A stretch of 63,278 nucleotides of DNA, the filler included, from Sphacelaria rigidula (Eukaryota), in assembly GCA_964200075.2 (NCBI GenBank). It is 11 parts of 11 records of this genome, joined end to end, with 100 filler letters (N's around TTAATTAATTAA, not from the genome) between each part and the next. Parts side by side here need not be neighbours in the genome. Positions count along the whole stretch, not along the records: positions 11,526 to 17,187 come from CAXNAA020025461.1; 10 more parts are not named here. One strand, given 5' to 3'. A model generated the notes under the pieces. It was not told the DNA's origin. It saw only the letters and a list, made by a program, of their open reading frames with translations, and made no database searches. Shown in pieces: positions 1 through 57,517 of this stretch. The first letter of the stretch is position 1. Every line of letters begins with the position of its first letter. The translations under genes were made by a program, and so were the position numbers.

Positions 1-2420
1 GCCATCAGGAATCTTGATCTTAAACGGTGTCGTGGTACATCGACCTAAATACAAGGGTGCAGTAGAAAACCGTTCAGAGTATCTAATCAAGATGGATCTC
101 AATCTATCGATTACAGTGGGTGTCCAAACATCGCCAGATAGATCAAAAACAATATGCCGTAAGTGAGGGGGAATGTCATCCCACAACTTTGGGAAACTGG
201 CGCGTTGTTCTGAAGAAAATCTATCCAATAATACAGTTGGGGGTTGAGGGTCAGACGCATCTGGGGGGTTTGTCACCACCATGGGGTCAGGCGTATGTAG
301 CGGAGGGGGGCCCGTGGATTTCGGGGGGTCGGTCGGCGAGTTGTTGTTCGCCGGGGGGCACATATCTGACAGGGCGGTTCGTATGAGAGGCGCTTGAGCA
401 TAACCCAACAACTGACCGTTGAGTATATCGAAACATGCAGGGGACGTGAGGTAAATGGCTGGCCTACCTTCGTGGAAAAAGACTTCGGTCTGTTCAAACG
501 GACCAACCTGTGCTTGGTCAGGTTTGAGCAACTCGACCAAATAATGTCCTGTGAGGGCGGGCGATCCATTGCGTCTCACGAGGTTCACTTGGATTGGTTG
601 AGGTTCACGAGAAAGCGAGATTTCCGGTTCACCAACATGGTACAGACGGAAAGCATCACCTGTTTTCGTGGGGCCATCCTCATAAGCATGAGCTCCCGAA
701 TCAGTGTCGAAGTGACCCAGAGACAGTTTGCCTGTCACTGGACGGTTCGCGACAGGTGTGTCCGTCGTGTACGTATGTGTGGAAAATCGAAGCCAACTGT
801 CTCGACCCAACAAAACATGAAAAGACATTGAACCGTCGGGCACTATTAGTGCCCATACGGACAACCGAGCAGTGGGAGTAGTATCCTGGTAGAATTGTAC
901 ACTTAGTCTCACCGATTGATTGACCGTAAGAGATGTGGAGGAACTAAACCCATCAAAAACGCGAGGGTGCACGGTGGACAGACAATGCTTGTCCGCCGCG
1001 CCCGCGTTGATCATCTGTTGCCAGCAGACACTTTCTACGATAGCCCCCCCCCAGAAGTGCATGGTTTTAGGAGGCAAAATCTTCACGTAAATCGAAACGA
1101 GACAAGCTGAGCACGACGAGAAGCTGGGAATTCTCACGCTTGGGGTCGTTATAGCCAATCTCGCCAATGCGAGGCGCCTCATGCAGCCTGAACCCGAACA
1201 TCAGGCGCTGTATGGCCATTTGTTTCGTGACACTTTTAGCTGGTTTTGGGGGGGGGGGGTATCGTAGAAAGTGTCAGCAGCTGGCGGTGATGAACGTTTG
1301 AGGTGAACCAGAGTCTGGTAGTGCAAGAGCTATCAAATGACAGTTTGCACACGCTCCACTATGTAAACCTATCTTGGTTGTAAAAGAAGCATCATCCACA
1401 GTTGCAAAACCACTGACGAGATCGAGCCCGAAGTCGGGTATGACATCTGACACATCCTGCTTCGCGTTTTGAACAAAGGTGCTAAAATACACTCGTTGAT
1501 GATCCTGTGGGACGAGCCTTTGGCCGGAAGGATGGTGCGTGCATGGAGTGTCAGTGTTTGTGCCTGGAACATTTGTCTCATCAGTCGAGGGTTGAATCTC
1601 ATATACTGCAACGGAGGGGCGATGCCGGGGAAGGGCAGTTGTCGTGGTCGACAGTGCAGACGATGTCAATTTGTTCGGATCCCATGAACAACACCCGACG
1701 CAACGTTATACCCGTGCCGTGTGCGATCATATGGAGATTGCAATATGGATGGCTCTGTTTAGGTAGGGGAGCAGTACCAACGTTTGCTACAGCACGGCAC
1801 CTCACCGTCCGCAAAGATATTGCCCGCTGAGACCACTTGTAATTCAAACGGCACCGTACTGTGGACAGTACTTCAATTCGGAACAATATTTCAACGCAGG
1901 AGGTACGTGGCATTCTGGGCGGTTGGTACGTACTGCAGTGGTTGTGTTGGTGGGGAGACACTCAAACTGTAATGTACACTGGTGCCGTGTAAAAGTGACA
2001 AAAGTACAGAGTCGAGGGCTTGTGTACAAGTAGCATGAATCTCGCGCCTCGATGTGTTCAATCATGCTCGTGTACAGACAACATTCTCAATCCTGGTCCA
2101 TCATGTCGGATCGATATAGTTCGGTGCGCATGGTGGCTCAACGTTCCGTGTTTGAAAGGAAAATCGTCTGCGCAGCGGGCGGCGATTGAAATAGCCCGCG
2201 CACTCGTTACCTGCAAGCATGATTCGGTGTGTGTTGGGACACATGTCGGTCGATTCGGTTGATACCGGAGCGACGGACTGTGGGCAGGGGCGGTCACGGG
2301 GTGTTTGGGGAGTGGTTGGTTGTGTAGCAAAAGAAGGCTTGCGTGTGCGCTCGTACCTGGAGCGCCTTGTGGTTCGGTCGCCATTGCCTGAGACCAACGT
2401 GGGTACTGTATGACACATCG
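1..2420 (-). mobile_element. Ty3/Gypsy LTR-retrotransposon gag-protease-(pre-RT) remnant, interrupted by a MITE and cut by the contig end
   Basis: Minus-strand translation gives the retropepsin motif ALPDSGSPQTFI (~1290-1325). It continues after MITE removal to VLLGRDSW (~790-815) and then LIRYSERFSTAPLYLGRCTTTPFKIKIPDG (1-90), typical of the segment just before Gypsy RT. A gag-like YCNLH..AH motif lies near 1720-1750. The upstream boundary is approximate. Confidence 0.8.
1027..1275. mobile_element. 249-bp MITE with C/G-tract TIRs and 4-bp TSD (AGCA)
   Basis: TIR GACACTTTCTACGATA+C-run / G-run+TATCGTAGAAAGTGTC. AGCA is duplicated at 1023-1026 and 1276-1279. Excision restores the Gypsy protease frame (TFITASC|WQQMINAGAA). 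Confidence 0.92.
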
Positions 2421-5400
2421 AAGACCTGCAGCTAACTCGAGTCGGGATGTCTGTCAAACTCCGAGTAAAAGAGAGAGCAGCTGTCTAAGAAGCTGTCTAA
2501 TTACCTTGGTGCATTACACCGCTAATCGTGTACACAAATATTAAGTGAAAACAAGACTGAAAATAAAAGGTTTTTGCGAGAAAACCTTGAGCTGGTGTTT
2601 GGCTGTGTGTAAGCAGCGGTCGATCGAGGAAGAAAAACCGTACACAGCTTGAATGAAACAAGCTACCTCTGAAGCCAAACACAATGTGGCGGTACAGGCA
2701 ATGCCGCTAGCAGTAAAGCCGTATACGCCGAACGCAAGCAAGCCACACCCTTGTGAGGTGCCGGCCAGCGGTCCTGGATCGACTTGCTACACTCAAAACT
2801 GCCGTTTCAATCTCTCAATTCAATAGCCCAGCTGTCAAAGGGGAAACCCACACAGCCCCGGAGCCAGAATACAATATAAATCGTGGATGAGGGTAGAAGT
2901 ACAGCACAACAAGAGACTCACGTCAACTGCTGTGGCTCGCGACCGTGGGGGCAGAGAGATCGAAGGTGGTAGATGATGGTTAAAAAGCTCTTCTTTATCC
3001 AATAGGTGCTTGGAGGCCGGTTGATGTGTCGAGTGAACAGGTGGGTAGAGCAGCTGTTCTATCGATACGTCCGTCTGCCCCGCTTACAACCTTGTCATAA
3101 TACAAAATCACCGTGACGTGCTCTGCCTTTAGCCAAACAACGCTGTAGTAGCAGCAGGTACACGCGGCTAGTCGGGTACAATCTATTTACGTTCAACCAG
3201 CGTCAACAATAAAAACAGTCCAAATCCTGCCTCGTCACAACACACATTCGACTAGAATCTTTCCATACCCGTCGGTCGTTTGTAGATCAATCGTAGTATT
3301 CCTGTACTGGTTTACTTGAGACCCTCAGTCATTTACCATCACATCAGCCCACCCTGGATCGTTTAAGTGCAGTCACTTTTCCGAAGGGACGAACTTGCAT
3401 CGAGCCACACCTCTCCCACGCCACAGAAAACAGAGACTCGATTTGAAGATCGATTCCTCTTTGGTACGGGGAACGGGAAGGGGCGATCAACACAAAAGAA
3501 ACAAAAGAATACAAACACAAGCACAAAGCAAAGAGAAAAAAAATCGAACCGATACAATGATTCGGTGTCCTCATGTTCCGTGAGTACTTTAGACGGGATC
3601 ATGGGAAACGAAAAATATATAAATGAATAAATAAATAAGACCCAAAATCAACAAAACCATATACCATGAAATGCCGTGTCTCCAGAATGTCGTACGCATT
3701 CCGGGATAGACACAGGGAATCAGAGACCAATCATTGAAACGATTATCCTACCCTGCCATAACTATATAATGAATACATAGTTCGCTCTTTTCCGAATGTC
3801 CGATTTGTTTTAGGTCATTGGTAGAAAAACAAGCAAGCCCGCCAAGGCATTATATCACTTTGATAACCAAGATCATGCTAATCACTCGTCCCAGTCAATT
3901 AGCAAAAGCAAACAACGTACAGCCGAGTTCGTCGCGGAAATGGTAGTTTCCCGCGAAAACCACACGTTGATGAAGGAAAAAAAATGATACGGACAAATGA
4001 ACCCGTTTGACGTGAGTTAATTGTCGGTACATGTTTGTGAGAACAACGACTTGCTTGGGACCTCTGGTTGATGATCCAGTCGTACAGCCTTTTTTTTCTT
4101 CTCACACGACGATACGAAAACAATTGACCGGTTTGTGAGGTCAGGTGTCCGTACACGTCAAAAGAAACGTGGTGGACAATACACAACCTTCGGGCCTACT
4201 ACGTAGTTCCGAGGCGGATCACCGAACACATTTCTGAACCACGACAGATACACAGGACAGAGAGGACAAACGCAGCCCACTCCTCACAGTATTTTTGCCC
4301 GTTCGGACTAAACCGAGACTGGCCCGAACACAAACTGGAGTAAAATCCACAGCCGGTCGTACCGTCATGTTATTTCGTCCAATAATCCCTGATGAAAACA
4401 AAACACCACCGACCAATTTCAGGGGCGGGTAATTGTACGCAAAAACTGGTAAAAGTGACAAAAAATAGCGAGTGGTGGACTCTGAGCCTGTAGGCTGTAC
4501 CAACGGTCGAATATCGACATGGCGGAACAGATAGTCCCGAAAGAGCGATCTACCTCATCATGATAGGTGATGGTCCTGTATGAGGAGGCGTTTGCAACCG
4601 ATCTTACCGCGGCTTCAATAACAATTCTTCAACCCGCTATGTACGACGCGGCCAGTGGTGGCCTCGTTGTAACTTACCCATCACCAAATCATAAATCATC
4701 GCGTCGCATTACCCGTGACCCTCCTATAAACGAGGTCTGTCACATGCGGCAGGACTCGGAAACAAACGTAGGCCAAGTGTTCTAGACTCGAGGGTCAGGA
4801 ACGTTGGAACACTCGTGGCGAAATTCCCGACATAGACGCAGAAACCAAAACCAAAATAAATACAAAACTAGGGGCACGCTAGGCAACAGCGAAAACGAAA
4901 GTCCGCAACATAGGGCAGAAAAACAACACGTGGCAACCGTCCTTGTAAACGGGGGCAGTTATCGTGTGGATGAAGCAAGCAGGGTCAAAACTTTCAGCCA
5001 AGAAGGTCAAAACATTTGAGGCAAACCCATGTCAATATAAAACTCAACGTGGTGCGCACACAAAAACGGGACACGTCATTGCCGATCCTGCAGGTGGAAG
5101 CGGTATGCGTGTACGGAGCGGTTGGGCAAGAGCGCAGTTATTCCAGACGGGGACGTCAGGTATATGCAGCGCTCGCTCCTAAAACTCTCAACCGAAAGGG
5201 CAAAAATAAAGAAAAATATCGACAATATGACACACAAAAAAGGACACGTCATGACCGGTCCCCAAAAGGGAGGCGGCACTCGCGTGCGAAGCGATTGAAC
5301 AAGAGCGCAAGTATTGTAGACGTGGGCGTAAGGTATTGCTAGCGCTTGCTCCGGAAACTCTTCCATCAGAACAAACAAATAAAAAATGAAGACCATGTAA

Positions 5401-5663: not shown

Positions 5664-5763
5664 NNNNNNNNNNNNNNNNNNNNNNNNNNNNNNNNNNNNN
5701 NNNNNNNTTAATTAATTAANNNNNNNNNNNNNNNNNNNNNNNNNNNNNNNNNNNNNNNNNNNN
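5664..5763. other. Artificial contig linker N44-TTAATTAATTAA-N44
   Basis: The identical 100-bp linker also occurs at 11426, 17188, 22950, 28712, 34474, 40235, 45996, 51757 and 57518. It carries stop codons in all six frames. Confidence 0.99.
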
Positions 5764-10627: not shown

Positions 10628-10693
10628 CGTTCTCATGTGTTGCTTGCCTTAGTCGTTTGACCATTGACCACGCATCCCTTTCGAGACGGAGCA
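10628..10693 (-). mobile_element. C-tract retroposon, 67-nt form A
   Basis: Matches consensus GTGCTCCGTCTCGAAAGGGATGCGTGGTCAATGGTCAAACGACTAAGGCAAGCAACAAATGAGTACG. Flanked by an imperfect ~21-23-bp direct repeat CCGT(C)AGAGGGGTAG(A/G)TGGGGG. Confidence 0.88.
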
Positions 10694-11542
10694 CCGTAGA
10701 GGGGTAGGTGGGGGCAACAAGCTTACCGCTGCGGTTTCATGCGCGTTGCGCTTGTGTGTTCATGTGTGTAGCAGTTTTTTTCCGTGTCCCCACTTGGCCA
10801 TCGGGAATACAGGCGAAATTTGTGCAATGTGACGCACAAAATTCAAGACACCACCCGACCACACCACACGCGCACGACCCGTGCCTACACTACGCACATC
10901 CGCCAGCAAACAAGTTCGCCACGCCGTTCAGCTCCTCAGCAGCAGCTACTGTGTGTTCATCACAATCACTCAACTACTACCTTCGAGGGCGAAGCGCTGC
11001 TGGTCATGGTTCATACACGAACGAATATCCATGACGCGCGGCATGTACACGAGTAGCAGCGGCTTTCACTTAGGTCTTGTCTCTCCACCGAAAACGACCG
11101 TTATTCGAAAGCCTGGCCCGAGGCATCTGACCTAGTTACGGGCCCCGCCATCAAAAGGGGGGACCTCTTGCCTGCGGAGTTTCCCGGGGTTCTCTCGCAG
11201 GATTTACATCGGGATACAGTATACTTCTCTGTCCCATAAGTAAAGGTACCCAAATTTTTACGTGCCCTGAACGATGTCTGATCATTTTTTTTTTAATGAA
11301 CTCCACGGTGTTTTTTGGGCTAAGAAAATGTGTTAAAATTTGCAGCTCGTGCTTGAACCATGCCACCGAACGGCTGCAAAAAAAGTAGTCGGCCCAAAAA
11401 TGGCCGTTTTTTGCCCCAATCCAAGNNNNNNNNNNNNNNNNNNNNNNNNNNNNNNNNNNNNNNNNNNNNTTAATTAATTAANNNNNNNNNNNNNNNNNNN
11501 NNNNNNNNNNNNNNNNNNNNNNNNNCCCCCCGGATAGTCACT

Positions 11543-11609
11543 GTGCTCCGTCTCGAAAGGGATGCGTGGTCAATGGTCAAACGACTAAGGCAAGCAACAA
11601 ATGAGTACG
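11543..11609 (+). mobile_element. C-tract retroposon, 67-nt form A (consensus copy)
   Basis: Exact direct repeat CCCCCCGGATAGTCACT (at least 17 bp) at 11526-11542 and 11610-11626. Confidence 0.93.
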
Positions 11610-11823
11610 CCCCCCGGATAGTCACTTGATCTACCTCCAGCTACTCCCCATTCGCTGGACTATCATTGGCCAAGTTCACTCGACTGAGAGCAACAAACGA
11701 GACAATATCAATGCCCCAAACGGCATGAGTCGATTTTATCTGGCCGACAAGGCACCAAGTAATCTGTTGCTGAGAACAAGGCGTGTCAGCCTCTGAGAAT
11801 GTGAAATATCTTCACATTTGGCG

Positions 11824-16586: not shown

Positions 16587-17084
16587 TGTACCCGTGATCT
16601 TGCACGCAGTAGTCATATGACCACTGACCTCGCGTTCCTACAAAGGCGGGACGGAGCACGCCGGGCTCGCCGGGCCAGGCTCGCAATCAATCGCGAAGCG
16701 CGAAGCGCCGCGATGTGTTCAGCGAATCGCATGAAGGGTGAGTTGCATCCTGCGAATATTCTTCGGCCGTACTGACTATCTTGCATAGGGATGACAGCCT
16801 CCAATGAGCCGCTTCATTTTCTGGTATCGCCACTTCCAGAGACAGCCACGGGCTGCATGTCGCCTCATGGGTGTCTCGTCACCATGAAACACTACGTAGT
16901 ATGGTCACCCCCTTTGCGAGGAATTGACGTTCTCCCACCCCGCAAAATATGATCTAGCTCTACCATCATCATGGTCACCGAAAAAAGACCTCAAGCGCGC
17001 AGAAAAACCCGGCAGCCTTGTTGCCTAGCTTACACAGTGAGTGGCATGTTTTACAGCGTCGTTGACAACGGACGCCAACCTCAT
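16587..17084 (-). mobile_element. C-tract retroposon, full-length form B (~500 bp)
   Basis: Colinear with 56908-57436 from (A/G)GTTGGCGT...CAACGACGCTGTAAA to GCAAGATCAYGRGTAC. G-runs lie on both sides, and GGGGGAGGGCG is repeated at ~16575 and ~17097. Confidence 0.85.
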
Positions 17085-17130: not shown

Positions 17131-17187
17131 CGTACTCATTTGTTGCTTGCCTTAGTCGTGTGACCATTGACCACGCATCCCTTTCGA
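17131..17187 (-). mobile_element. C-tract retroposon form A (cut by contig end), stacked next to form B
   Basis: CGTACTCATTTGTTGCTTGCCTTAGTCGTGTGACCATTGACCACGCATCCCTTTCGA follows a G-run. Confidence 0.9.
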
Positions 17188-23049: not shown

Positions 23050-23227
23050 ACTTAGCAGTGACCACATCCGCATCTGAGCTGATATCTATCCTGATTACGG
23101 TCAATGGTCTGATGACTATGGCATGCATGATCATGAGTACACCCCCCGTAGGGTGTACATAGCCCCTGGTCGTTGACCGTAATCAGGATAGATATCAGCT
23201 CAGATGCGGATGTGGTCACTGCTAAGT
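23050..23227. repeat. Perfect 55-bp inverted repeat enclosing a form-B 3' fragment
   Basis: 23050-23104 is the exact reverse complement of 23173-23227. The B fragment GGTCAATGGTCTGATGACTATGGCATGCATGATCATGAGTACA lies at 23099-23141 and is followed by CCCCCC. Confidence 0.95.
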
Positions 23228-23409
23228 AAGACCAAACTTCGTTCGAAAATATACGTCTGGGTTTCTAATACACGATATATATATACAAGGTTCCCCTTCG
23301 GGAGGTTGATACTGGCCTCCCGGGGGTGACGCAAGTCGAAAATATACCAATGTTATTCCTTTTTCATATTATGGAGGCGATTGTGTGGGAGAATATGTAC
23401 CTTCCAGTA

Positions 23410-23959
23410 CAGTAGTGGGCGGTCTAACTATTTCAAGGCGTATTGGGTTTTTTCCCGCGTACTACTCTTCGATAGAACTCGTAATTGCTAGGGTCGGTAG
23501 ATTTTGGCACAAAAAAATAGATCATCTTCGAAACACGGTGTCCGAGTCAGTGTTAGGTGGTGTTATCGGGCGAAACGAGTAAATACCCTGTTCATCAGGA
23601 GGGTGTTATTGACCGTGAAACACTGTCTTTCGGCCCTAGTGTACTCAGTAGGCAGAATTTCAAACAAATAAACTGTACATTTCTTTGAAAATATGATCGG
23701 GACGGGCTCGATCGACCAAAAATACACAAGAGAAAGAGCCTGGGCTAAAACGTGGCAGGACCCCCGATGACCGGTCAGCCCGTAAGTCACTCCGTATTGA
23801 GTACAGATGGTTTTTTCTTCTTAGAATGTGGAACGGATACCAATATATTCAGATCCCCGATGTGATGAGGGGTGGTAAGCGCAAAAAGCCCAAGAAAATC
23901 TCAAATGACTGAAAAATCACAACATGCCACAAAATGAATAGTTGGACCGCCCACTACTG
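23410..23959. mobile_element. Tc1/mariner-type MITE (550 bp)
   Basis: TIR CAGTAGTGGGCGGTCTAACTATT / AATAGTTGGACCGCCCACTACTG, with TA on both sides. Related TIRs occur at ~27032 and ~57689-57710. Confidence 0.88.
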
Positions 23960-26208
23960 TAGATGCTCGTACTGTCACATTTCGCAGTTTCGAAAGTCTC
24001 AGACCAAGAGTAGCGGAAAGAGCGGTGGATACTTCCAGCATGAAGTGCTCGCTTCACGGGCGGTGTGCGGAGGTGGAAAAAACACCATCACGCACGAGAC
24101 CCGTCACAGCACACATCGCAAGTGATTACCACTGAAAAAAGGTCGCGTCCCGGTAGTACATGGCGAACTTGTGCAGGGTTCTCTAAATGCCGGCCCGAGC
24201 CCGTACGCACGGATTTCAAATCACACTTGTATACAGTATATATGCATGATATTGCTTGTTGTCTGTGTGTACGTGGTGTACCACCCCTCGCTCTAGTACA
24301 GCGGTCGGTGTTGCAGCCAAGTGTGCATTTGCCCTAGGTGGCGCACGCAAGAGTAATAGGCCGCCTCTGCCGCTATAATTCCTGCCTGTATATTGAGCGG
24401 ATGAAAACACAGCCGCTATGGCGCGCAAGCCGGCTGTAACAATTCATACCGCGTGGAGATTTCTACACTGTCTTGAAGTCATACTGCGCGCAGTCCGACT
24501 GTTGTACGAGTATTGTGCACGTCGCAGAAGGAAAATAGCTTCTATACTATGCACAGTACATGTTTAGAAATTGTATACTGAGTGTAGAAAGCTCTTGTCT
24601 AGGGTGTAATACATTTCCATATATATCAGGCGGTGATATCGTGAAACAATCAAATAATCCACAGCACATGGCCGAAGTGGAAGTGAGGCAGTCACCGAAA
24701 TATTCGCGTGCAAAGCCTGTGCGGCCGTACTCTAAGTTGTTAACGCTAGAACACCAGTGCAACGACTATTCCGGCTGCCGGCGTGTGCACGGCCGTCCTG
24801 GTAGTGTTGGGACTGTCTGTACCGGGATGTGGCCCCCAGTGCCAAGTACGCCGGCAAGGGTCCGCAGCACTACCCACTGGTCGCGCGACAGGAGCTCAAT
24901 CTTCGACTGCCGAAATTTTTGAGGTGGAAATGTTCAGCTCCCAACCCTCACATAGGCCTATATAGCGGACCATAAACGAGCGTTCGTCTATAACTTGGCG
25001 AAGATTGATGATGAGGCCGGCAGGATCCGTCGCAGCCTGCGTGCTCAACTGTCACTGTTGTACCCACTCTATCTAGCCGTCATCAGAAAGCAGGGTGTTG
25101 AAAAAATAAAGTGCCACGCACCGTGGGTATCCACCGTATCAATGCACACCGTGCCATTAGCGACTTCCCCTGCTGCAGCTGTGACTGTGACCCGTTCCTC
25201 TAGCACCAATCTACACATTCTTCAGTGTTCTTCGCGATGCTTTTTTTGTCGGTTGTTACGTTCGCATAAGTGGGGCACATATTACGCAGATATGACCGTG
25301 TTGGAGGCTTCACGTCAAAACTAAATGAGAAGGGATCTCAGATCATTCCACTGCTGTTTGCTGCTGACTAAGTCAGGGCAATGTCCAGCTGTGTTCAACT
25401 GCTTTGCTCTCATGTTCTCGTGACATTCGCTGCATAACCACTGTGTTCGTGTTCCCAAATCATCGAGAACGCAAAGGAAATCGCGGTGAAATAATACCCC
25501 GCCCTGTGAGCGGGCTTTCGTGGCTCTTGTTTGAAGTTTTCGACGATCTTGGAAAGGCTTTTATGATTCGGGATCGACACCCCGCGAAAAAGAGCCAGCG
25601 TGGGCGACTTTCGATGGCAAGAACACGCGCCAAAGGTATCAGATGACACCCTAACCTGAACTGTAATGTACCGCTGACCCCCCATCGTGCACTTCAAAAG
25701 AAAGCGCGGGCCAAGATGCCTTGCAGACAGAGAACACTCGGCAAAAGTGGTGAAAAATGCGAAATGATACAGGTACATATATACATATATATATATATAT
25801 GTCATGGATGCATTTTGTCGGGGGGGGGGCGGTGGTTTGCGTCCAATCCCTGTTGTTCATGAGCGTCATGTTGAGCCATTGCTTCTTGCTTGCTTGGTTA
25901 TCAACGCTGAATTGGCCGAGAAAACGGTGGATTTTCCTGGATTGTTCTTCGAAAATCCGACTTTTTTAATGGAATGAAAGTATTTTCACTCCCTTATTTT
26001 TCAGATTGATTTTTATTTTTTTGCACTTTTTTTTCGACATATACGTATACATATATTGCTATTGCCATATAGGTCTCGTCGATTGTGGAGGAATACGATA
26101 CGTTTGTAACTGTCGGCGGTCAGAGTATTCGAGTCTTCCATGGATGACTCGTTTCTTCATTTCTTCCATCACTCTCTTCCAGTCCATGCCGATTTACGCT
26201 TGGCCATT

Positions 26209-26712: not shown

Positions 26713-26777
26713 GTCTCCGTCTCGAAAGGATGCGCGGCCGCTGGTCGAATGACAGAGGCAAGCATAAAATGAGTACG
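26713..26777 (+). mobile_element. C-tract retroposon form A (diverged copy)
   Basis: CTCCGTCTCGAAAGGATGCG...AAATGAGTACG, flanked by CCCCCCTTCC on both sides. Confidence 0.85.
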
Positions 26778-27031
26778 CCCCCCTTCCCCTCAGGTCACTC
26801 AAAATCGTCCATGATCAAATTGGATCCTAAATCTGTGTTTTGTTCAAGTGGCACAACACGCCCATCTATCCGAACGGGTGGATGTTAAGTACATATACGG
26901 AAAATTAGAGCACGAGGAACCCCGACCGTTATTTTCTGGCCGAGCCACCTGCGTACAGGTTTGGTTGCTCTGGTATGTATGTTGAGTGTGCGATATTCAA
27001 TTTGCCACGCACAAGGAAGTGGGGCCACGTA

Positions 27032-27330
27032 TAGTAGTGGGCGATCTAACTATTCATTGTTTGGCATCTTGTGATGTTTTCGTAATCGGCGATTTTCTTG
27101 GGCTCTTTTCGCTTGCCACCGTTTATCACATTGAGAACCTGAAGATGCTTGTTTTCTCTCCACATTCCAAGAAAAACTAATCATCTGTACTCAAGATTCA
27201 GTGACTTACGGGCTGACCGGTCATCGGGGGTCCTGCCACTTTTCAGCCCAGATTCTTACTCTTCGGTATTTTCGGTCGATCGAGCCTGTCCCGATCACAT
27301 TTATGAAGAAATGTACATTTTTTTTTTTTA
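27032..27330. mobile_element. Partial Tc1/mariner-type MITE, same family as 23410-23959
   Basis: Left TIR TAGTAGTGGGCGATCTAACTATT. 27200-27320 is reverse-complementary to 23670-23790. Confidence 0.75.
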
Positions 27331-27506
27331 ATTCCACCTACTCATTGCGAAACTGTACATGACATATTCTCAACCGCTCGATGATACGGTACCGCGCTGC
27401 TGCTGCTGCACGGTACAGACGAAATTGTTGCATCAGCGACCAGTTATAGCAAAAAATAGATAGTAGACCAATGTTGCCATAGCCCCCCCCCTCCTCCCCA
27501 GAGGTG

Positions 27507-27630
27507 AATGGTCTTCTGACTATGGCATGCATGATCATGAGTACACCCCAACTCCCCAGAGAAGTGCTCCGTCTCGAACGGGATGCGTGGTCAAAAGTCA
27601 CACGACTAAGACAAGCAACAAATGAGCACG
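27507..27630 (+). mobile_element. Stacked C-tract retroposons: B fragment (27507-27545) plus form A (27564-27630)
   Basis: The target CCCCAGAG(AA)GT is present three times, before, between and after the two inserts. Confidence 0.88.
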
Positions 27631-28911: not shown

Positions 28912-28975
28912 CTCCGTCTCGAGAGGGATGCGTGGTCAATGGTCAAACCACTAAGGCAAGCAACGAATGAGTACG
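28912..28975 (+). mobile_element. C-tract retroposon form A
   Basis: Consensus match between two C-runs (CCCCCCCCCTCCCC on both sides). Confidence 0.88.
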
Positions 28976-32384: not shown

Positions 32385-32478
32385 GTACTCATGATCTTGC
32401 ATGCCATAGTCAAATGACAATTGACGTCGCATCTCTACGAAGCCAGGACGGAGCACGCCGGGTTTTCGCCGGACCAGG
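32385..32478 (-). mobile_element. C-tract retroposon form B, 5'-truncated
   Basis: GTACTCATGATCTTGCATGCCATAGTC...GGACGGAGCACGCCGGGTTTTCGCCGGACCAGG matches the B 3' end. No clear TSD. Confidence 0.8.
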
Positions 32479-33087
32479 ATTTTTTATTGGCTTTACTCAA
32501 CCATTTGCTTTTGTTACTTTTTCAAGTCTTCGTCTACTATGTCGTTTTGTTTTTTCCTTGGATACGTCTGTCGTGTGGTCACGGCTAGATCCCTGTGGGG
32601 TTCAGGTAAAGTGCGACAACTGAAAAACAAATCAATCAAACCATACTGAAATGTGTACCGAACATTCCGGCAGGGTCCGGCAGGGTATCGAGCCCTGTTG
32701 GGAACACTGCGGTCTGGTACGGGAAAGTATTTCCTGATATAATGTCGCTTTTTATATTTATGTGAATACCAAATGCCCGCATTTCAGTCGGTATACTCTA
32801 CATAACACGGCCTCCGAACCGTTTTTGCTGCTCACATCCCCACGTGTCTGCAACGACGGAAATCAGATCTTGCTCAGAAAAAACCCTAAAGGAGGCATCT
32901 GCCGGAGATCGAGCTCGCATTGTTCCGACGTAACTGACTCCAGTTTGTACCATTGATTAGACGACCGGGGCGTAGTGGCTAGTGCATCAATATTCGCCTC
33001 TGTGCTTGCACCCACACCGATTATTGAACAGCAGCAGCCTACGTCTGTGACCACGGGTTCCCGAGCTCGGACTAATGTGCGGAAACA

Positions 33088-33195: not shown

Positions 33196-34691
33196 GTAAC
33201 TAATATCACGATTATTCTGATCTTTAGTTCTAGGTCGCTCACAGCGCAGCGGGGAAACTCGCCCCCCTCTCAGATCAGTACGTTAATCGTTACCTCTCTC
33301 CGCCCGCGCGCTCCACCACCGCCCGACTCCTCCTTGCACGAGGTCAGCGAAAAAAGTCTTTCCAACACATATCCGCTGCCGCCGTACCGAGTTTTTGCGT
33401 TGGAGTCAGGCTACCAGCGTGAAGCTACACGAGTCATTTTCGTGTGTGCTGTGAAAAGTAAAAAATGTCAGCCACACCCCTGCATAGCTGAAGAAACACG
33501 TCTCTCAGTAAACACCGGCAAACATGCAAAATCTCAGATTTTTCGTTTGATTGGTCCAGAACTTCCGGGAACTTCTGAACTTTCGCAGAAGTCATCAAGA
33601 CTCTATTTCACATGCCATGTCTCAGCTAAGGAAGAAATTCCAACACAGACACTCTGTCGTGGGACGGAGTTTTGGCGTTGGCGTTAGGCTGCCAGCGTAG
33701 AGCTACGTGATTGTGTTCATCCGTGTGTGCTTTGACAAGGCAAAAAACCACACCTGCGTACCTGAAAAAGTACGTTTTTCGTCTGAACAGACCACACTAT
33801 GAACTTCGAACTGCACCTGCGTACCTGAAAAAGTACGTTTTCCGTCTGAACAGCCCACAACAGAAACTTCAAACTGTCAAAACTTCAGACATAGTCGACC
33901 GTCACCAACCGGCATGGTCTACCACCCGTCAACGGCATCACTTCGGCGTGCTTATTGACCCACACGCCAGGGTCAATCTCCAGGAATTTGATTTTTTTCG
34001 CCAGTGCCTATCAGTTCAAGACTTCATATGTAGTGTTTTAAGTCAACGTTCCTACATGGCTTCTGATAAATTTTCTTCAAGTTGCAGCAAGCGTGAGGGC
34101 GTCAAGTTAGGGGTTCCTAAAGCCCCAAATTATACAGCGTGTGACTTTTTTGATACCAGTGGAATTTGAAATTATACAGCGTGTGACATTCCTCTCGTGT
34201 GTCTGCGTTCATTCCCTTTGGTCTGTTGTTTTTAGGTTTTCACTGCAGCAATATATTGTCTTTCCCTTGCTCAAAAAAGTAAATCAACCATCCAACCATC
34301 CATCCTCAAACAATCTTTAATTTAATTAATTAATAAAATACTTTTTATAACTATTTATCTTATTTAGCAGGGGTGTGTACGGAGGACAATTCGCTCCGCG
34401 GTGCGGATTGTCACGGTGCGGTTTGTCAATCCACACCGCTCCGTGGCATTTGTAGGGGGCGGATATCCGCACCNNNNNNNNNNNNNNNNNNNNNNNNNNN
34501 NNNNNNNNNNNNNNNNNTTAATTAATTAANNNNNNNNNNNNNNNNNNNNNNNNNNNNNNNNNNNNNNNNNNNNTCGGTTGGGGGGGGGGTGTGTTTTGTT
34601 AGGTGAAATTCTGTCTTCTAGACCGCGCCCCCCCCCCCCCCCCCCCCCCCCCCCCGAACCAGATTGAAAAACTGTCCCGATGGCCACACAT

Positions 34692-34753
34692 CGTCCCGGC
34701 TTTGTAGGGATGCGAGATCAATTACGACTACCACATGCATGATCATGAGTACA
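34692..34753 (+). mobile_element. C-tract retroposon form B, 3' fragment
   Basis: CGTCCCGGCTTTGTAGGGATGCGAG...GCATGATCATGAGTACA followed by a C-run. Confidence 0.85.
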
Positions 34754-40032: not shown

Positions 40033-40098
40033 CGTACTCATTTGTTGCTTGCCTTAGTCGTTTGACCATTGACCACGCATCCCTTTCGAGACGGAGCA
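40033..40098 (-). mobile_element. C-tract retroposon form A
   Basis: Consensus match, with GGGAGGG immediately on both sides. Confidence 0.9.
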
Positions 40099-46999: not shown

Positions 47000-49612
47000 A
47001 TAGCACGGCAGCACGTGATCGAGACGTTCCCACACAACCTCGGGGAGCGAGCATACCAGCCACCCACCACCACACCGGCGGCCGCGAAGGAGTTCACCGA
47101 AGCTATCCCCGAAGTAGCACAGAGAGTACTCCCGGCGAAGACACGGATAACACGTATGCCGGAATGGTATGATGAAAGTCCCGATACGAGAGCAATAGTA
47201 GAGGCAGCGCTTGTGCACCAACGGGAGCCACGACGGTTGATGAAGGACAACCGGACCCCAGCAACGTCGAAAGCCCTCAGAGCCGCGTGTGTAAAGGACT
47301 ACGTACTGCGATACACGACGGCGTCCATGCACACCTGGAGAGATACGTGGCGAGGCTACAAGCCACCTACAAGGATCGCGACATGCGAGACCTGTACAAA
47401 CACCTCAAGAGGCCGGTAGGTCTTGACAGAAGGCAATCAGAGGGGCAGCAGTTCATCAAGGACGAGAACAGTGCTCTACTGAGGAACGACATCGAGATCC
47501 TGAAGCGGTGGGCGATCTTTTTCCGAATCGTGCTCAGCACCAAATCGCCCACGCTGAACCCAGCCATCATCGAGGAGGTGAAGCAGTAGCCGACAGCATT
47601 ACCCACCGGAGATTCGTTACCGCTTGGGTCAGCACCAACGCTGGAGGAGACCACACGAGCAGTCCGTGGGATGCAAAACTGGAAAGCGTCGGGGCCCGAC
47701 TCTCTCCCTGAAGAACTACTCAAGATCGACGGCCGAGTCGAATCTATCGTTATCGAACGCTCCCGTGCCATCCTCGTCGAGGTGTGGAACGGAGGTAAGG
47801 TCCCGCAGGAATGGAAAGACGCTACGATAACAGTACTGTGCAAGGAATCGGACCTTTTCAACTGTAACAACTACCTGGGATTCTCACTGGTGTCGCACGC
47901 AGGGAAAGTGCTCTCGAAGATAGTGGCCAACCACCTCAGCGACTACTACGAAGCACACGGGATACTGCCGGAGCAACAGTGAGGCTTCCGACCTGATCGA
48001 TCCACCACCGACATGTTGTTCGTAGTGCGCCGGCTTTAGGAACTGAGACAACGATGGAGAATACCACTATACATGTGCTTCGTCGACCTCCAAATGCCCT
48101 ATAATTCGGTCGACCGAGAGCTCCTATAACAGGTGCTTGCCCGATATGGTATTCCGGACGAGATGATAGCACTTATCCGCCAATTCCACGATGGCATGCC
48201 GGCCCGCGTGCGCATGGACGACGGGGAGCTTTCGGAGTGGTTCGAGGTCACTCAGGGACTACGGCAAGGGTGTATGCCGTCTCCGCTGCTCTTCGATATA
48301 TTTTTCACTGCGGCGCTCGAGATGGCTCTCGTGCGATTCAGCGAGGACAACATCATCCTCAAGGATATGGTAAATGTCGACGAGGAGACGGTGGGGGAGA
48401 CGGAGATGCCTCTGGAACGTGTGTAATGCGCGGGAGGACCGCGTGCTGAGGGGACCGCATCGGAATTTAAAGATCCCTGTGGTTAGGGTTAGGGCTCGGG
48501 TTAGTGGTGGGTTAGGGTCAGGGGCATGGTCCCTGCAGGTACTGGCCCGGTTGGCTTCGAAAAGCGTCGATCCGGAGGTGTTTTGAACTATGATGTGGTA
48601 CCCTACGCAGGCGGTCCTCCCACGCAATACAATGCGTACGGAGAGCGGTGTGGAGAATGCTATACTGTATGCCGATGACGCGACCGTCGTCTCGAGGTCC
48701 CCTGACGGCCTGGCGAGGATGATGACGGTTATAGTACGCGTGTTTGGGGCCTACGGACTGACGGTGTCGGAAAAGAAGACAGAGAATCTACTGATGCGAG
48801 TACCGCAAAAATCGCTACAGGAGGTGGAGCCACCATCACCACCTGCCCCACCACTAGTCATCGAAACAGCGGGCAAGAAGTACGCATTAACCACGACGTT
48901 CCGATATTTTGGTGGGCTCGTCAACAAAGATGGCGAGCCCACACAAGCGATCAATAACCGGAGTAGAGCCGCGTGAGCGTGCGTCAGAAGGGTTTCCCGG
49001 GAGATCTTTGACCGACCGAAAGCACCGTAGAGACTCAAGGCCCGCCTGCTGAAGGCAGAGGCGATGGAGGCCCTACTATACGGATGCATGATGTGGGCCC
49101 CGCGCCGCAAGCACTACAGGTTGCTGAGGATGGTACACTACCGACTCCTGCTGCGAGTTATCGGGTACCGTCGAGTGCGTGGCACATACCGACATTTACC
49201 GTATGCCCAGGCCTTGAAGAAGACCGGATGCCAAAGTGCTGAAGCCATCGTCCGGCAACGGTGACTGCTGTTTGCGGGAGCCCCAGCTAGACAACCGGAC
49301 GGACGACCAGCGAAGCGACTGGTATTCGGGCCACTTGTGGTGGGGGAGGGTTCAGGACCAGGGTACCCGGAGCAAAACTGGCTGAAGTGCCGGGGGGACG
49401 ATTTTCAAGCTTTTGGAGCCACGAACGGCTCTACGGACGACAGCCGACAGACACTCGGACTTGAGAATACCCTCTGGCCTTCAGCAGCGAAGAAGGAAGG
49501 GGGGATACTATGGCACGCGGGGGTGCTGCAGGGAGCAGAGAGACTCATGACCTCTTGGCACAAAAACGAGGAAAAGGCCAGCCGACTACGGGCGATTAAA
49601 CGGAAGCTTTGA
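47000..49612 (+). pseudogene. Decayed non-LTR retrotransposon (RTE-like LINE) reverse transcriptase
   Basis: RT motifs in order: [50 protein letters not shown]...[43 protein letters not shown]. Multiple in-frame stops and frameshifts. Confidence 0.93.
48423..48630. mobile_element. 208-bp MITE with internal TTAGGG repeats, inserted in the LINE RT
   Basis: TIR GTAATGCGCGGGAGGACCGC / GCGGTCCTCCCACGCAATAC. 7-bp TSD AACGTGT / AATGCGT. Removal restores LERVRRAVW. Confidence 0.85.
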
Positions 49613-56300: not shown

Positions 56301-56639
56301 ATCCCACAAGTGGACACGTGCGGTGCTAAATCTCCGTTCGTAGAATCGGCGCATCGTTTTTACGTTCCAAATGTAATTGTGCTGAAAAGCTCTCTTTATC
56401 AAGTGTGGACACTCGATCTGGTGACGAAGTTATTACTTTGTTTTGTACGCACCTCCTGACGTTTCAACGAGAGAAAACCCAGCCTTACCTGCCGAGGTTC
56501 GAACCCTCCATCTTCCGCCGTAACTGGTTCCAGCTGTATATTTTTGTTCAGGCTGCCGGGTCTCGGCGGCGAATATGTTTACATATTAGGGATAGCCCCA
56601 ACTCCCCCCCGCCGGCCCCCTGTCTCTAGAAGTGGGAAT

Positions 56640-56886
56640 TCGTGAAATAAATAAACTCGTTCGAGGCTGTCATCCATATGCATGAAAGTTGGTATGCTTA
56701 CGGCCGAACAATCTTGGTGAAATGCAACCCACCCTTCATGTGACTCGCCGGACACATCACGGTGCTTGCGCTTGTTGACTGCGAGCCTGGTCCGGCGAAA
56801 ACCCGGTGTGCTCCGCTCCGGCTTTGTAGGGATGCAAGGTTGATGATCTCATGACTTTGACTACTGAATGCAAGATCATGAGTACA
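56640..56886 (+). mobile_element. C-tract retroposon form B, 5'-truncated (~250 bp)
   Basis: Aligns to the 3' half of 56908-57436 and ends in GATCATGAGTACA+CCCCCC. The 5' boundary is approximate. Confidence 0.85.
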
Positions 56887-56907: not shown

Positions 56908-57436
56908 CCCTTTCAAAAGTTGGCGTTGGTCGTCAACAACGCTGTAAACACGGCACTCACTGCGCATGCAAGGGGACTACGTTGCCGTTTCTTTTTCTCG
57001 TTTGTATTTTTTTGCGGTATCCACGATGGTAGTCGAGTTGGATCATTTTGTGTGTGGTGAAAAAATTCCATTCCGCGCAAAGGGGATGATCATACTACGT
57101 TGTGTTTCAATGGTGAGACACCCATGAGGCAGTGAGGCAGTGCTATGGCATGATCATGAGTACACATGAGGCAGTGTAAGCCGTGGCTGTCTCTGGACGT
57201 GGCGATAGCAGAAAATGAAGACACTCATTGTAGACTGTCTTCCATATGCAAGATGCTTGGTACGCTTCGGGCCCGACAATCTTAGCAGGATGTAGCTCAC
57301 CCTGCGAGTCGCGGAATACATGACGGCGCTTCGCACTTGGTGATGGATTGCGAGCCTGGTCGGGCGTGCTCCGTCCCGGCTTTATAGGGATGCGAGGTCA
57401 ACGATCTAAGACCACGGCGTGCAAGATCATGAGTAC
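56908..57436 (+). mobile_element. C-tract retroposon, full-length form B, with a nested 22-nt B 3' end
   Basis: Colinear with 16587-17084 (reverse). Extra CTATGGCATGATCATGAGTACA at 57143-57164, flanked by CATGAGGCAGTG. Confidence 0.87.
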
Positions 57437-57455: not shown

Positions 57456-57517
57456 TGCTCCGTCTCGAAAGGGATGCGTGGTCAATGGTCAAATGACTAA
57501 GGCAAGCAACAAATGAG
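57456..57517 (+). mobile_element. C-tract retroposon form A (cut by contig end)
   Basis: TGCTCCGTCTCGAAAGGGATGCG...AACAAATGAG directly after the C-run that ends form B. Confidence 0.9.

Follow-up and report, generated by a model that had tools for sequence, protein, structure and literature searches.

A 67-nt element and its copies in the window

The window analysed here, a stretch of 63,278 nt (1-63278) from Sphacelaria rigidula, consists of 11 contigs of 5661-5663 bp, ordered by size and chained via 100-bp linkers (44 N, TTAATTAATTAA, 44 N), such as those at 5664-5763 and 11426-11525, and adjoining contigs are not necessarily neighbours in the genome. Its third contig (11526-17187) carries, 17 nt from the contig start, a 67-nt element at 11543-11609, here called form A. 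An earlier reading of this DNA, the original prediction, took form A for a closed, tRNA-like RNA domain that also makes up the 3' end of a longer element, form B. We find that form A at this site is a retroposed copy restricted to the final 67 nt of an autonomous long interspersed nuclear element (LINE) encoding an endonuclease (EN) and a reverse transcriptase (RT). The evidence is drawn from the window, a few public contigs and one catalogue paper.

The letters at 11543-11609 agree with those of the original prediction. The 24-nt 5' part of form A has 5 matches in the window and its 21-nt 3' part has 7, against 0.00 expected in either case. A covariance model trained on 9 form A sequences, run with filters off and at E up to 0.05, gathered 18 members, namely 8 form A copies in the window, 4 LINE ends from outside it and 6 form B copies. 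A seventh form B copy, heavily truncated, was reached at E = 8.8 only, and the window total is therefore 8 form A and 7 form B copies (Table 1).

Form A is the 3' end of a LINE reading frame

The external LINE ends lie on three metagenome contigs (L001-L003, matched by a pattern of hairpin 1 of both forms) and on one contig of a genome collection (L004, in its whole length L009). In all four, form A is continuous with an upstream reading frame that ends at a TGA occupying positions 60-62 of form A. Form A thus comprises the last 19 codons of the frame, the stop codon and 5 further bases (GTACG), after which a C-run begins; the last two bases of the stop open the 3' strand of the closing stem drawn for the element. 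In L009, the frame is 1359 amino acids long and contains an Exo_endo_phos domain (residues 170-392, E = 7.9e-11) and an RVT_1 domain (residues 740-989, E = 6.7e-32). The closest solved relatives of its protein are LINE-1 ORF2p and R2 proteins. A total of 19 protein matches were retrieved, and those with names belong to Ectocarpus sp. and Sphacelaria rigidula. Sequencing runs containing the contig bear the label 'algae metagenome' or a single coded organism name, and the host is thus a brown alga or closely related to one. The C-terminal peptide ...GAPSRKGCVVNGQMTKASNK is found in most of them, with one or a few changes in some, while in several the frame is lost or the end is missing. Among the LINE copies compared (n=4), divergence is 0-5% over the last 20 codons and 4-18% over the preceding 84 (pairwise p = 0.01-0.13, from comparisons that are not independent).

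None of the 8 form A copies in the window carries any of the LINE body. In 7 of them the 5' end can be determined, and it always falls between LINE positions 5083 and 5089, where 5086 is the first G of form A. An exact 40-nt pattern gave no match in prokaryote genomes, and a gapped pattern gave none in viral contigs. One protein of the LINE family (P0004) is filed under a bacterial metagenome-assembled genome, and L004/L009 sits in a bacterial bin; both look like mis-binned algal contigs.

When public contigs from four sequencing runs were compared with the contig at 23050-28711, bins covering the element reached a summed word depth of about 1e5, compared with 10-14 in the unique bins of that contig. 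No RNA run was listed among those containing the sequence. One of four runs presumed to be RNA (X6) showed depth in the element bins and none in the unique bins, a pattern equally compatible with transcribed repeats and with low-coverage DNA and hence silent on expression.

Target duplications, C-runs and tandem chains

The target-site duplication (TSD) around 11543-11609 is perfect over 17 nt, and that around the copy at 10.6 kb is 94% identical over 17 nt; both begin with a C-run. Around 27.5 kb, a threefold C-rich repeat, CCCC..CCCCAGAG, brackets a truncated form B and a form A copy lying in tandem. A direct-repeat family was sought at 26.7 and 40.1 kb and was not found at either place. The original prediction had described the stem as followed by one purine and CC, like a discriminator base with the beginning of a CCA end. 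The purine is indeed usual. What follows it is C-rich, varies in length from 3 to >20 bases and is interrupted by T, and there are exceptions: B57.4 lacks the purine, and B32.4 has TTCC in place of the C-run. Since the 17-bp TSD itself begins with the C-run, the supposed discriminator plus CC is the (C)n tail of the LINE and the start of its target rather than a CCA end.

Copies of the two forms also occur in head-to-tail chains (A17.1 then B16.6; B27.5 then A27.6; B56.8 then B57.4 then A57.5). In the public contigs, 7 of the 9 joints that land on form A hit its first or second base (among the joints listed, 15 of 183), and the spacers, where given for those listed, are 1-12 letters long. Behind the tail, loose ends in these contigs consist of C-runs leading into unrelated sequence. 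The public-contig rows listed included no empty-site allele. On L009, positions 1-100 (minus strand), just behind the C tail of the LINE, look like the 5' head of form B when compared by eye (GTTGG ... GACGCTGTRAAACATG ... CACTG); another element of the family thus seems to lie head to tail behind the LINE there.

These signatures suggest insertion by target-primed reverse transcription. The endonuclease would nick the bottom strand at a C-run, and the G-run so freed would anneal to the C-rich 3' terminus of the element's RNA and prime its copying; a staggered second nick would then yield a 17-bp duplication that starts with the C-run. Because the tails are themselves C-runs, new copies would land behind old ones and build the head-to-tail chains.

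Form B, a non-coding partner of the LINE

Homology between the LINE and form B is limited to the last ~67-80 nt and starts at most 2 nt from the first G of form A, and no convincing likeness between the two was found upstream of the module. With the boundary at this base, the claim that form A equals the 3' domain of form B holds. Form B copies keep the stem letters (CGTCCC/GGGATG and TGGTC/GACTA) and differ in their loops, as had been predicted: hairpin 1 carries GGCTTTGTA or GGCTTTATA, and hairpin 2 carries ATAT, TTCT or TGAT. The first loop is 5 nt longer than in form A, which shifts the frame, and the module codes for nothing in form B. We therefore describe form B as a non-coding element of 490-520 bp with a diverged 67-nt module as its 3' end, presumably copied by the enzyme of the LINE.

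One of the form B tails lies at a contig start that folds back on itself: a perfect 55-nt inverted repeat (23050-23104 against 23173-23227) leaves 68 nt between its arms, and these hold the tail. The fold-back resembles an assembly artefact at a contig end, and the 5' limit of the copy at 23105-23141 is, for that reason, not trusted.

Table 1. Copies of form A and form B, and the target-site duplication around 11543-11609, by position in the window
Feature	Position	Strand	Description
Form A	11543..11609	+	67 nt; 102.8 bits; 97% identity to LINE L009 positions 5083-5158
Form A	10628..10694	-	Full 67 nt; 17-nt duplication, 94% identical, C-run first
Form A	17131..17187	-	5' part lost at contig end; C-rich tail, then directly the head of form B 16587-17079
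Form A	26713..26777	+	Older, diverged; 86% identical to LINE tail
Form A	27564..27630	+	GAGCAC variant; directly behind truncated form B; duplication CCCCAGAG(AAG)
Form A	28912..28975	+	Begins at element position 4; C-rich runs on both sides
Form A	40033..40098	-	Begins at element position 2
Form A	57456..57517	+	Begins at element position 2; 3' end lost at contig end; directly behind form B tail
Form B	16587..17079	-	493 nt, apparently complete, non-coding; diverged tail module (GGGTAC) in the last ~75 nt
Form B	56919..57436	+	Apparently full length, 518 nt; 5' start equal to that of the copy at 17079
Form B	56620..56886	+	5'-truncated, 267 nt
Form B	32385..32479	-	5'-truncated, at least 95 nt
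Form B	34690..34753	+	5'-truncated, 64 nt; behind a long C-run; E = 8.8 only
Form B	27505..27545	+	5'-truncated, 41 nt
Form B tail	23105..23141	+	5' limit untrustworthy; contig-start fold-back
Upstream TSD copy	11526..11542	+	17 bp, CCCCCCGGATAGTCACT; the contig begins with it; perfect direct repeat, 84 from start to start
Downstream TSD copy	11610..11626	+	Its C6 run is the CC(A) of the original prediction

Other repeats in the window

Several further features were noted. Pfam searches of the 12 longest open frames of the window returned no family. At 47638-48354 (+), a different RT-like stretch shares 29% identity over 248 amino acids with the RT part of the LINE (tblastn E = 1e-27); the frame around it is interrupted by stops, and it is probably a decayed LINE of another family. 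At 11667-11701, a stretch weakly resembles form A in its middle and 3' portions (74% over 39 nt, E = 0.16) and is accompanied by a 12-nt repeat, AGCAACAAAYGA; this may be a decayed old copy or a chance likeness. The stretches 23239-25884 and 27019-27396, whose summed depths in the public contigs exceed those of the unique bins by factors of hundreds to thousands, are other high-copy repeats. The linker motif TTAATTAATTAA occurs a twelfth time at 34322, there within natural AT-rich sequence and not as a linker.

Conservation of the predicted stems

The minimum free energy fold of 11543-11615 (-19.0 kcal/mol) is the one drawn in the original prediction, with a closing stem GUGCUC/GAGUAC, a GAAA-loop hairpin and a UGGUC-AAAC-GACUA hairpin with a short extension. 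The opposite strand of form A folds poorly (-9.1 kcal/mol, z = +1.74). When the consensus sequences of forms A and B were compared, none of the 30 ungapped stem columns differed, against 8 of 28 unpaired ones (Fisher p = 0.0016), and both length changes between the forms fell within hairpin loops. The sole stem change at the family level, U11 to C, replaces a U-G pair by C-G. In several LINE lineages (P0004, P0009, P0010 and P0017), the tail peptide has Arg instead of Cys. The sole single-base route, TGC to CGC, would convert G-U pair 8/21 to G-C, and that same base change is carried by the DNA of B16.6. The contrast between stems and loops is only suggestive, because it amounts to essentially one comparison of lineages.

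Several results weigh against a functional fold. Covariation among the A and B copies, which the original prediction had proposed as a check, was not significant by pair counting or by RNAalifold. Over 17 distinct sequences, 92.8% of cells were paired compared with 91.9% in shuffles (28 of 500 shuffles reached the observed value), the extended structure did no better in pair counting, and the only 2 double changes both came from non-homologous flank aligned in a truncated copy. RNAalifold gave a covariation term of +0.37 and kept the two hairpins only, dropping the closing stem. The fold energy of 11543-11615 is not better than that of dinucleotide shuffles (z = -0.87, with 40 of 200 shuffles doing as well), and six other copies and the LINE context ranged from z = +0.95 to -1.57. 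When folded within 149 nt of LINE context, the closing stem loses its 5' strand to pairing with sequence upstream. Conservation of the stems could, moreover, mean that letters are recognised and not pairing.

The closing stem varies among copies. The claim that variants preserve its pairing is borne out by GAGCAC (27564-27630) and GGGTAC (the copy near 16.6 kb), but GAGAAC (10.6 kb), GACTAC (L002) and a 5' CTGCTC (40.1 and 57.5 kb) break the stem. We regard the two hairpins as plausible and the closing stem as the weakest part of the structure.

It is possible, though on balance we think it rather unlikely, that the conservation reflects needs of the primary sequence only, that is, coding in the LINE and recognition of letters or priming at the 3' end, and that the drawn fold has no function. 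The lack of compensatory changes and the energies at shuffle level are what such a case would look like, and so is the recurrence of the C-terminal peptide ...GAPSRKGCVVNGQMTKASNK in most protein matches. Against it, form B keeps all the stem letters even though it is non-coding, with changes in its loops and in the single-stranded stretch, and the Arg-for-Cys lineages would imply a G-U to G-C replacement at 8/21 equal to the change present in B16.6 DNA. The module is most likely the RNA element recognised by the LINE enzyme, judging from the two hairpins kept in both the coding LINE and its non-coding partner; the weaker closing stem includes the stop codon. Taken as a whole, we consider it probable that form A is a LINE tail copied by target-primed reverse transcription, with form B as the partner of the LINE and the module as the likely recognition site of the enzyme.

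Form A copies share a 5' start

The original prediction placed the start of form A at the 5' strand of the closing stem, and all 7 determinable copies do start there, within 7 nt. It had also set randomly distributed 5' ends of form A, genome-wide, against its own reading; in the window, the copies are clustered instead (7 of 7). Such a start near the module boundary was found for 7 of 7 form A copies but for only 1 of 6 form B copies (Fisher p = 0.0047), one form A copy at a contig end and the form B copy in the fold-back being left out of the count. Form B lengths are scattered (493, 518, 267, at least 95, 64 and 41 nt). This is a difficulty for an ordinary LINE-tail copy, as plain 5' truncation fails to explain a common start in form A beside scattered ends in form B, the stems being equal. 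Given the clustered starts and a boundary between LINE and form B at the same base, we take the tail-only copies to be a discrete product, one of which would have seeded form B. The fixed start may mark a boundary of copying set while the enzyme grips the module, or else the end of a discrete short RNA.

Under the second of these options, form A would be a small retroposon in its own right. Master copies or LINE copies would give rise to an RNA of ~67 nt plus the C tail, either from its own transcription start or through a specific cut immediately ahead of the first G, and the LINE enzyme would copy this RNA in full. The 7 starts within 7 nt against the scattered truncation of form B speak for it, as do the many public contigs in which a tail is joined directly to base 1 or 2 of form A; the shared boundary of LINE and form B is also as expected if a tail-only copy seeded form B. 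However, neither the module nor the last 800 nt of the LINE yielded a promoter, a ribozyme or a known RNA family, the module is coding sequence in the LINE, and the inserted form A copies give no sign of selection, since 14 of 393 stem cells and 23 of 384 unpaired ones hold private changes (p = 0.13). We judge this origin unlikely. No ribozyme or known RNA family that could account for a 5' cut was present in Rfam at E up to 10, for the element and the last 800 nt of the LINE, a collection that does not cover all ribozyme variants. Hammerhead and hepatitis delta virus-like folds were considered informally, by eye against their core motifs, and were set aside: the GAAA loop is replaced in form B, there is no partner for P1, and there is no room for P2/P3.

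The first option can be carried further, into a scheme that we hold to be quite improbable in its full extent. The 67-nt module would be a self-contained minimal unit of retrotransposition, in which the two-hairpin junction, overlapping the stop codon, re-forms as the enzyme leaves the ribosome and captures it in cis; the grip would set the boundary of the template, and the abundant 67-nt product would have seeded form B.

Array and tRNA-like readings

The direct repeat around form A gives 11526-11626 a periodicity of 84 bp, which might mark the edge of a satellite-like tandem array produced by unequal exchange. The contig begins exactly at the first repeat copy, hiding what lies upstream, and public contigs contain form A followed by form A (backward joints). 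Other copies, though, have different duplicated flanks of similar length, each with the C-run first, and the letters between tandem units vary from place to place, which fits repeated insertion into tails. An array origin is thus very unlikely.

Hardly credible, finally, is the release of a tRNA-like domain from longer transcripts by RNase P/RNase Z, in the manner of mascRNA, with the purine and CC as the discriminator and the start of CCA. A closing stem followed by a purine and C's can be drawn, and the 5' end of form A is the first base of that stem. Yet the element has two hairpins only, and a stretch of 15 unpaired bases (46-60) separates the second of them from the closing stem's 3' strand. 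In a tRNA, the acceptor stem stacks on the T-arm through an unbroken 3' strand; here, the unbroken strand is the 5' one (positions 1-12), the reverse of that arrangement. The C-run of 3 to >20 bases is interrupted by T, is genomic and lies within the TSD, and CCA directly follows the purine in 0 copies. The closing stem is neither kept by RNAalifold nor formed in the LINE context. ARAGORN found no gene, and Rfam at gathering scores no match, in the whole window. An Rfam scan for a tRNA-like family, also suggested in the original prediction, returned 0 matches for 11526-11660 even at E up to 10; at the same limit, a full form B copy and the last 800 nt of the LINE gave nothing, or hits at chance level (12.6-19 bits against gathering scores of 31-55). 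The tRNA-like reading, with its cut by RNase P/Z, is not supported.

What form A has in common with mascRNA (MALAT1) and with the Mauriceville retroplasmid is a structured 3'-terminal RNA module near C residues. The Mauriceville retroplasmid has a tRNA-like 3' end that its reverse transcriptase uses. Form A differs from both in having no cloverleaf, no CCA and no match to tRNA or mascRNA models, and in being inserted into chromosomes, with TSDs, by an endonuclease-bearing LINE. The alternative offered in the original prediction, an RT recognition signal, fares better: the module is the extreme 3' end of an EN/RT LINE and is common to a non-coding partner. We consider a recognition tail plausible on these grounds, with enzyme binding as its conjectural part, although the likeness is to the tails of LINEs and short interspersed nuclear elements (SINEs) and not to Mauriceville.

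Relationship to known LINEs and their partners

The LINE appears to be of the same kind as the RTE-X elements with (C)n tails of the brown alga Ectocarpus. According to the Ectocarpus catalogue (PMC12477816, Genome Biol 2025), the RTE-X LINEs RTEX-1 and RTEX-2 have a 'single EN-RT ORF; (C)n 3'' (ORF, open reading frame) and a 'C-rich' TSD. RTEX-N1 is described there as a non-autonomous element of 604-607 bp with >6000 copies, its '60 bp 3' end 83% RTEX-1/RTEX-2', which 'can be present in tandem' and whose head is weakly like the 5' end of RTEX-2; a tail of this kind is also present in RTEX-N2 (188 bp). The LINE resembles RTEX-1_Ec32 and RTEX-2_Ec32 in its single EN-RT frame, (C)n 3' end, C-rich TSDs and frequent 5' truncation. 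Form B resembles RTEX-N1_Ec32 as a non-autonomous partner with ~60 bp of 3' end in common with the LINE and with tandem occurrence, and differs from it in length (493-518 nt against 604-607 nt). A point against the assignment is that identity with RTEX-1 and RTEX-N1, and thus RTEX family membership, is drawn from shared features and not from an alignment to the published consensus sequences or an RT tree.

The main text of PMC12477816 mentions no stem-loop, secondary structure, hairpin or tRNA, and its family table has no 67-nt unit. The fixed start of form A beside the scattered truncation of form B is likewise absent from the catalogue, within the portions consulted. A literature search on poly-C tails of elements without long terminal repeats (non-LTR elements) returned no related paper.

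Shared tails are also known from animals. In eel (UnaL2/UnaSINE1) and zebrafish (ZfL2), a LINE and its partner have a common short 3' tail hairpin that is reportedly recognised by the LINE protein (PMC1636434, PMC4176376). The LINE and form B are like such 'stringent' LINE/SINE pairs in that autonomous and non-autonomous elements have a 3' tail in common. The tails of those pairs lie in the 3' untranslated region and end in short repeats, whereas the module considered here is the end of a reading frame (19 codons and the stop), with 5 bases after the stop and a C-run as its tail.

A comparison can also be made with LINEs of the RTE clade. Malik and Eickbush reportedly described, in 1998, members of this clade in which the 3' untranslated region is very short, along with SINEs that stem from truncated 3' ends of such LINEs. 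The present LINE is like them in its very short 3' end after the stop, its extreme 5' truncation and its tail-derived dependent elements, and unlike them in its C-run, their tails being A/T-rich short repeats. RTE-clade LINEs are not known to give a fixed 67-nt product.

Implications

Form A belongs to a known kind of element, being the ordinary tail of a mobile element, and represents no new class of RNA. For annotation, 11543-11609 should be masked as a LINE tail and not entered as an RNA gene. Two features of the family are notable for retrotransposon research. The part common to the LINE and its partner falls within the reading frame, stop codon included, with almost no untranslated 3' end, and the tail-only copies have a single fixed start where truncation of the partner is scattered. 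If confirmed genome-wide, the family would offer a compact natural system in which to study how a LINE enzyme recognises its RNA and where its copying stops.

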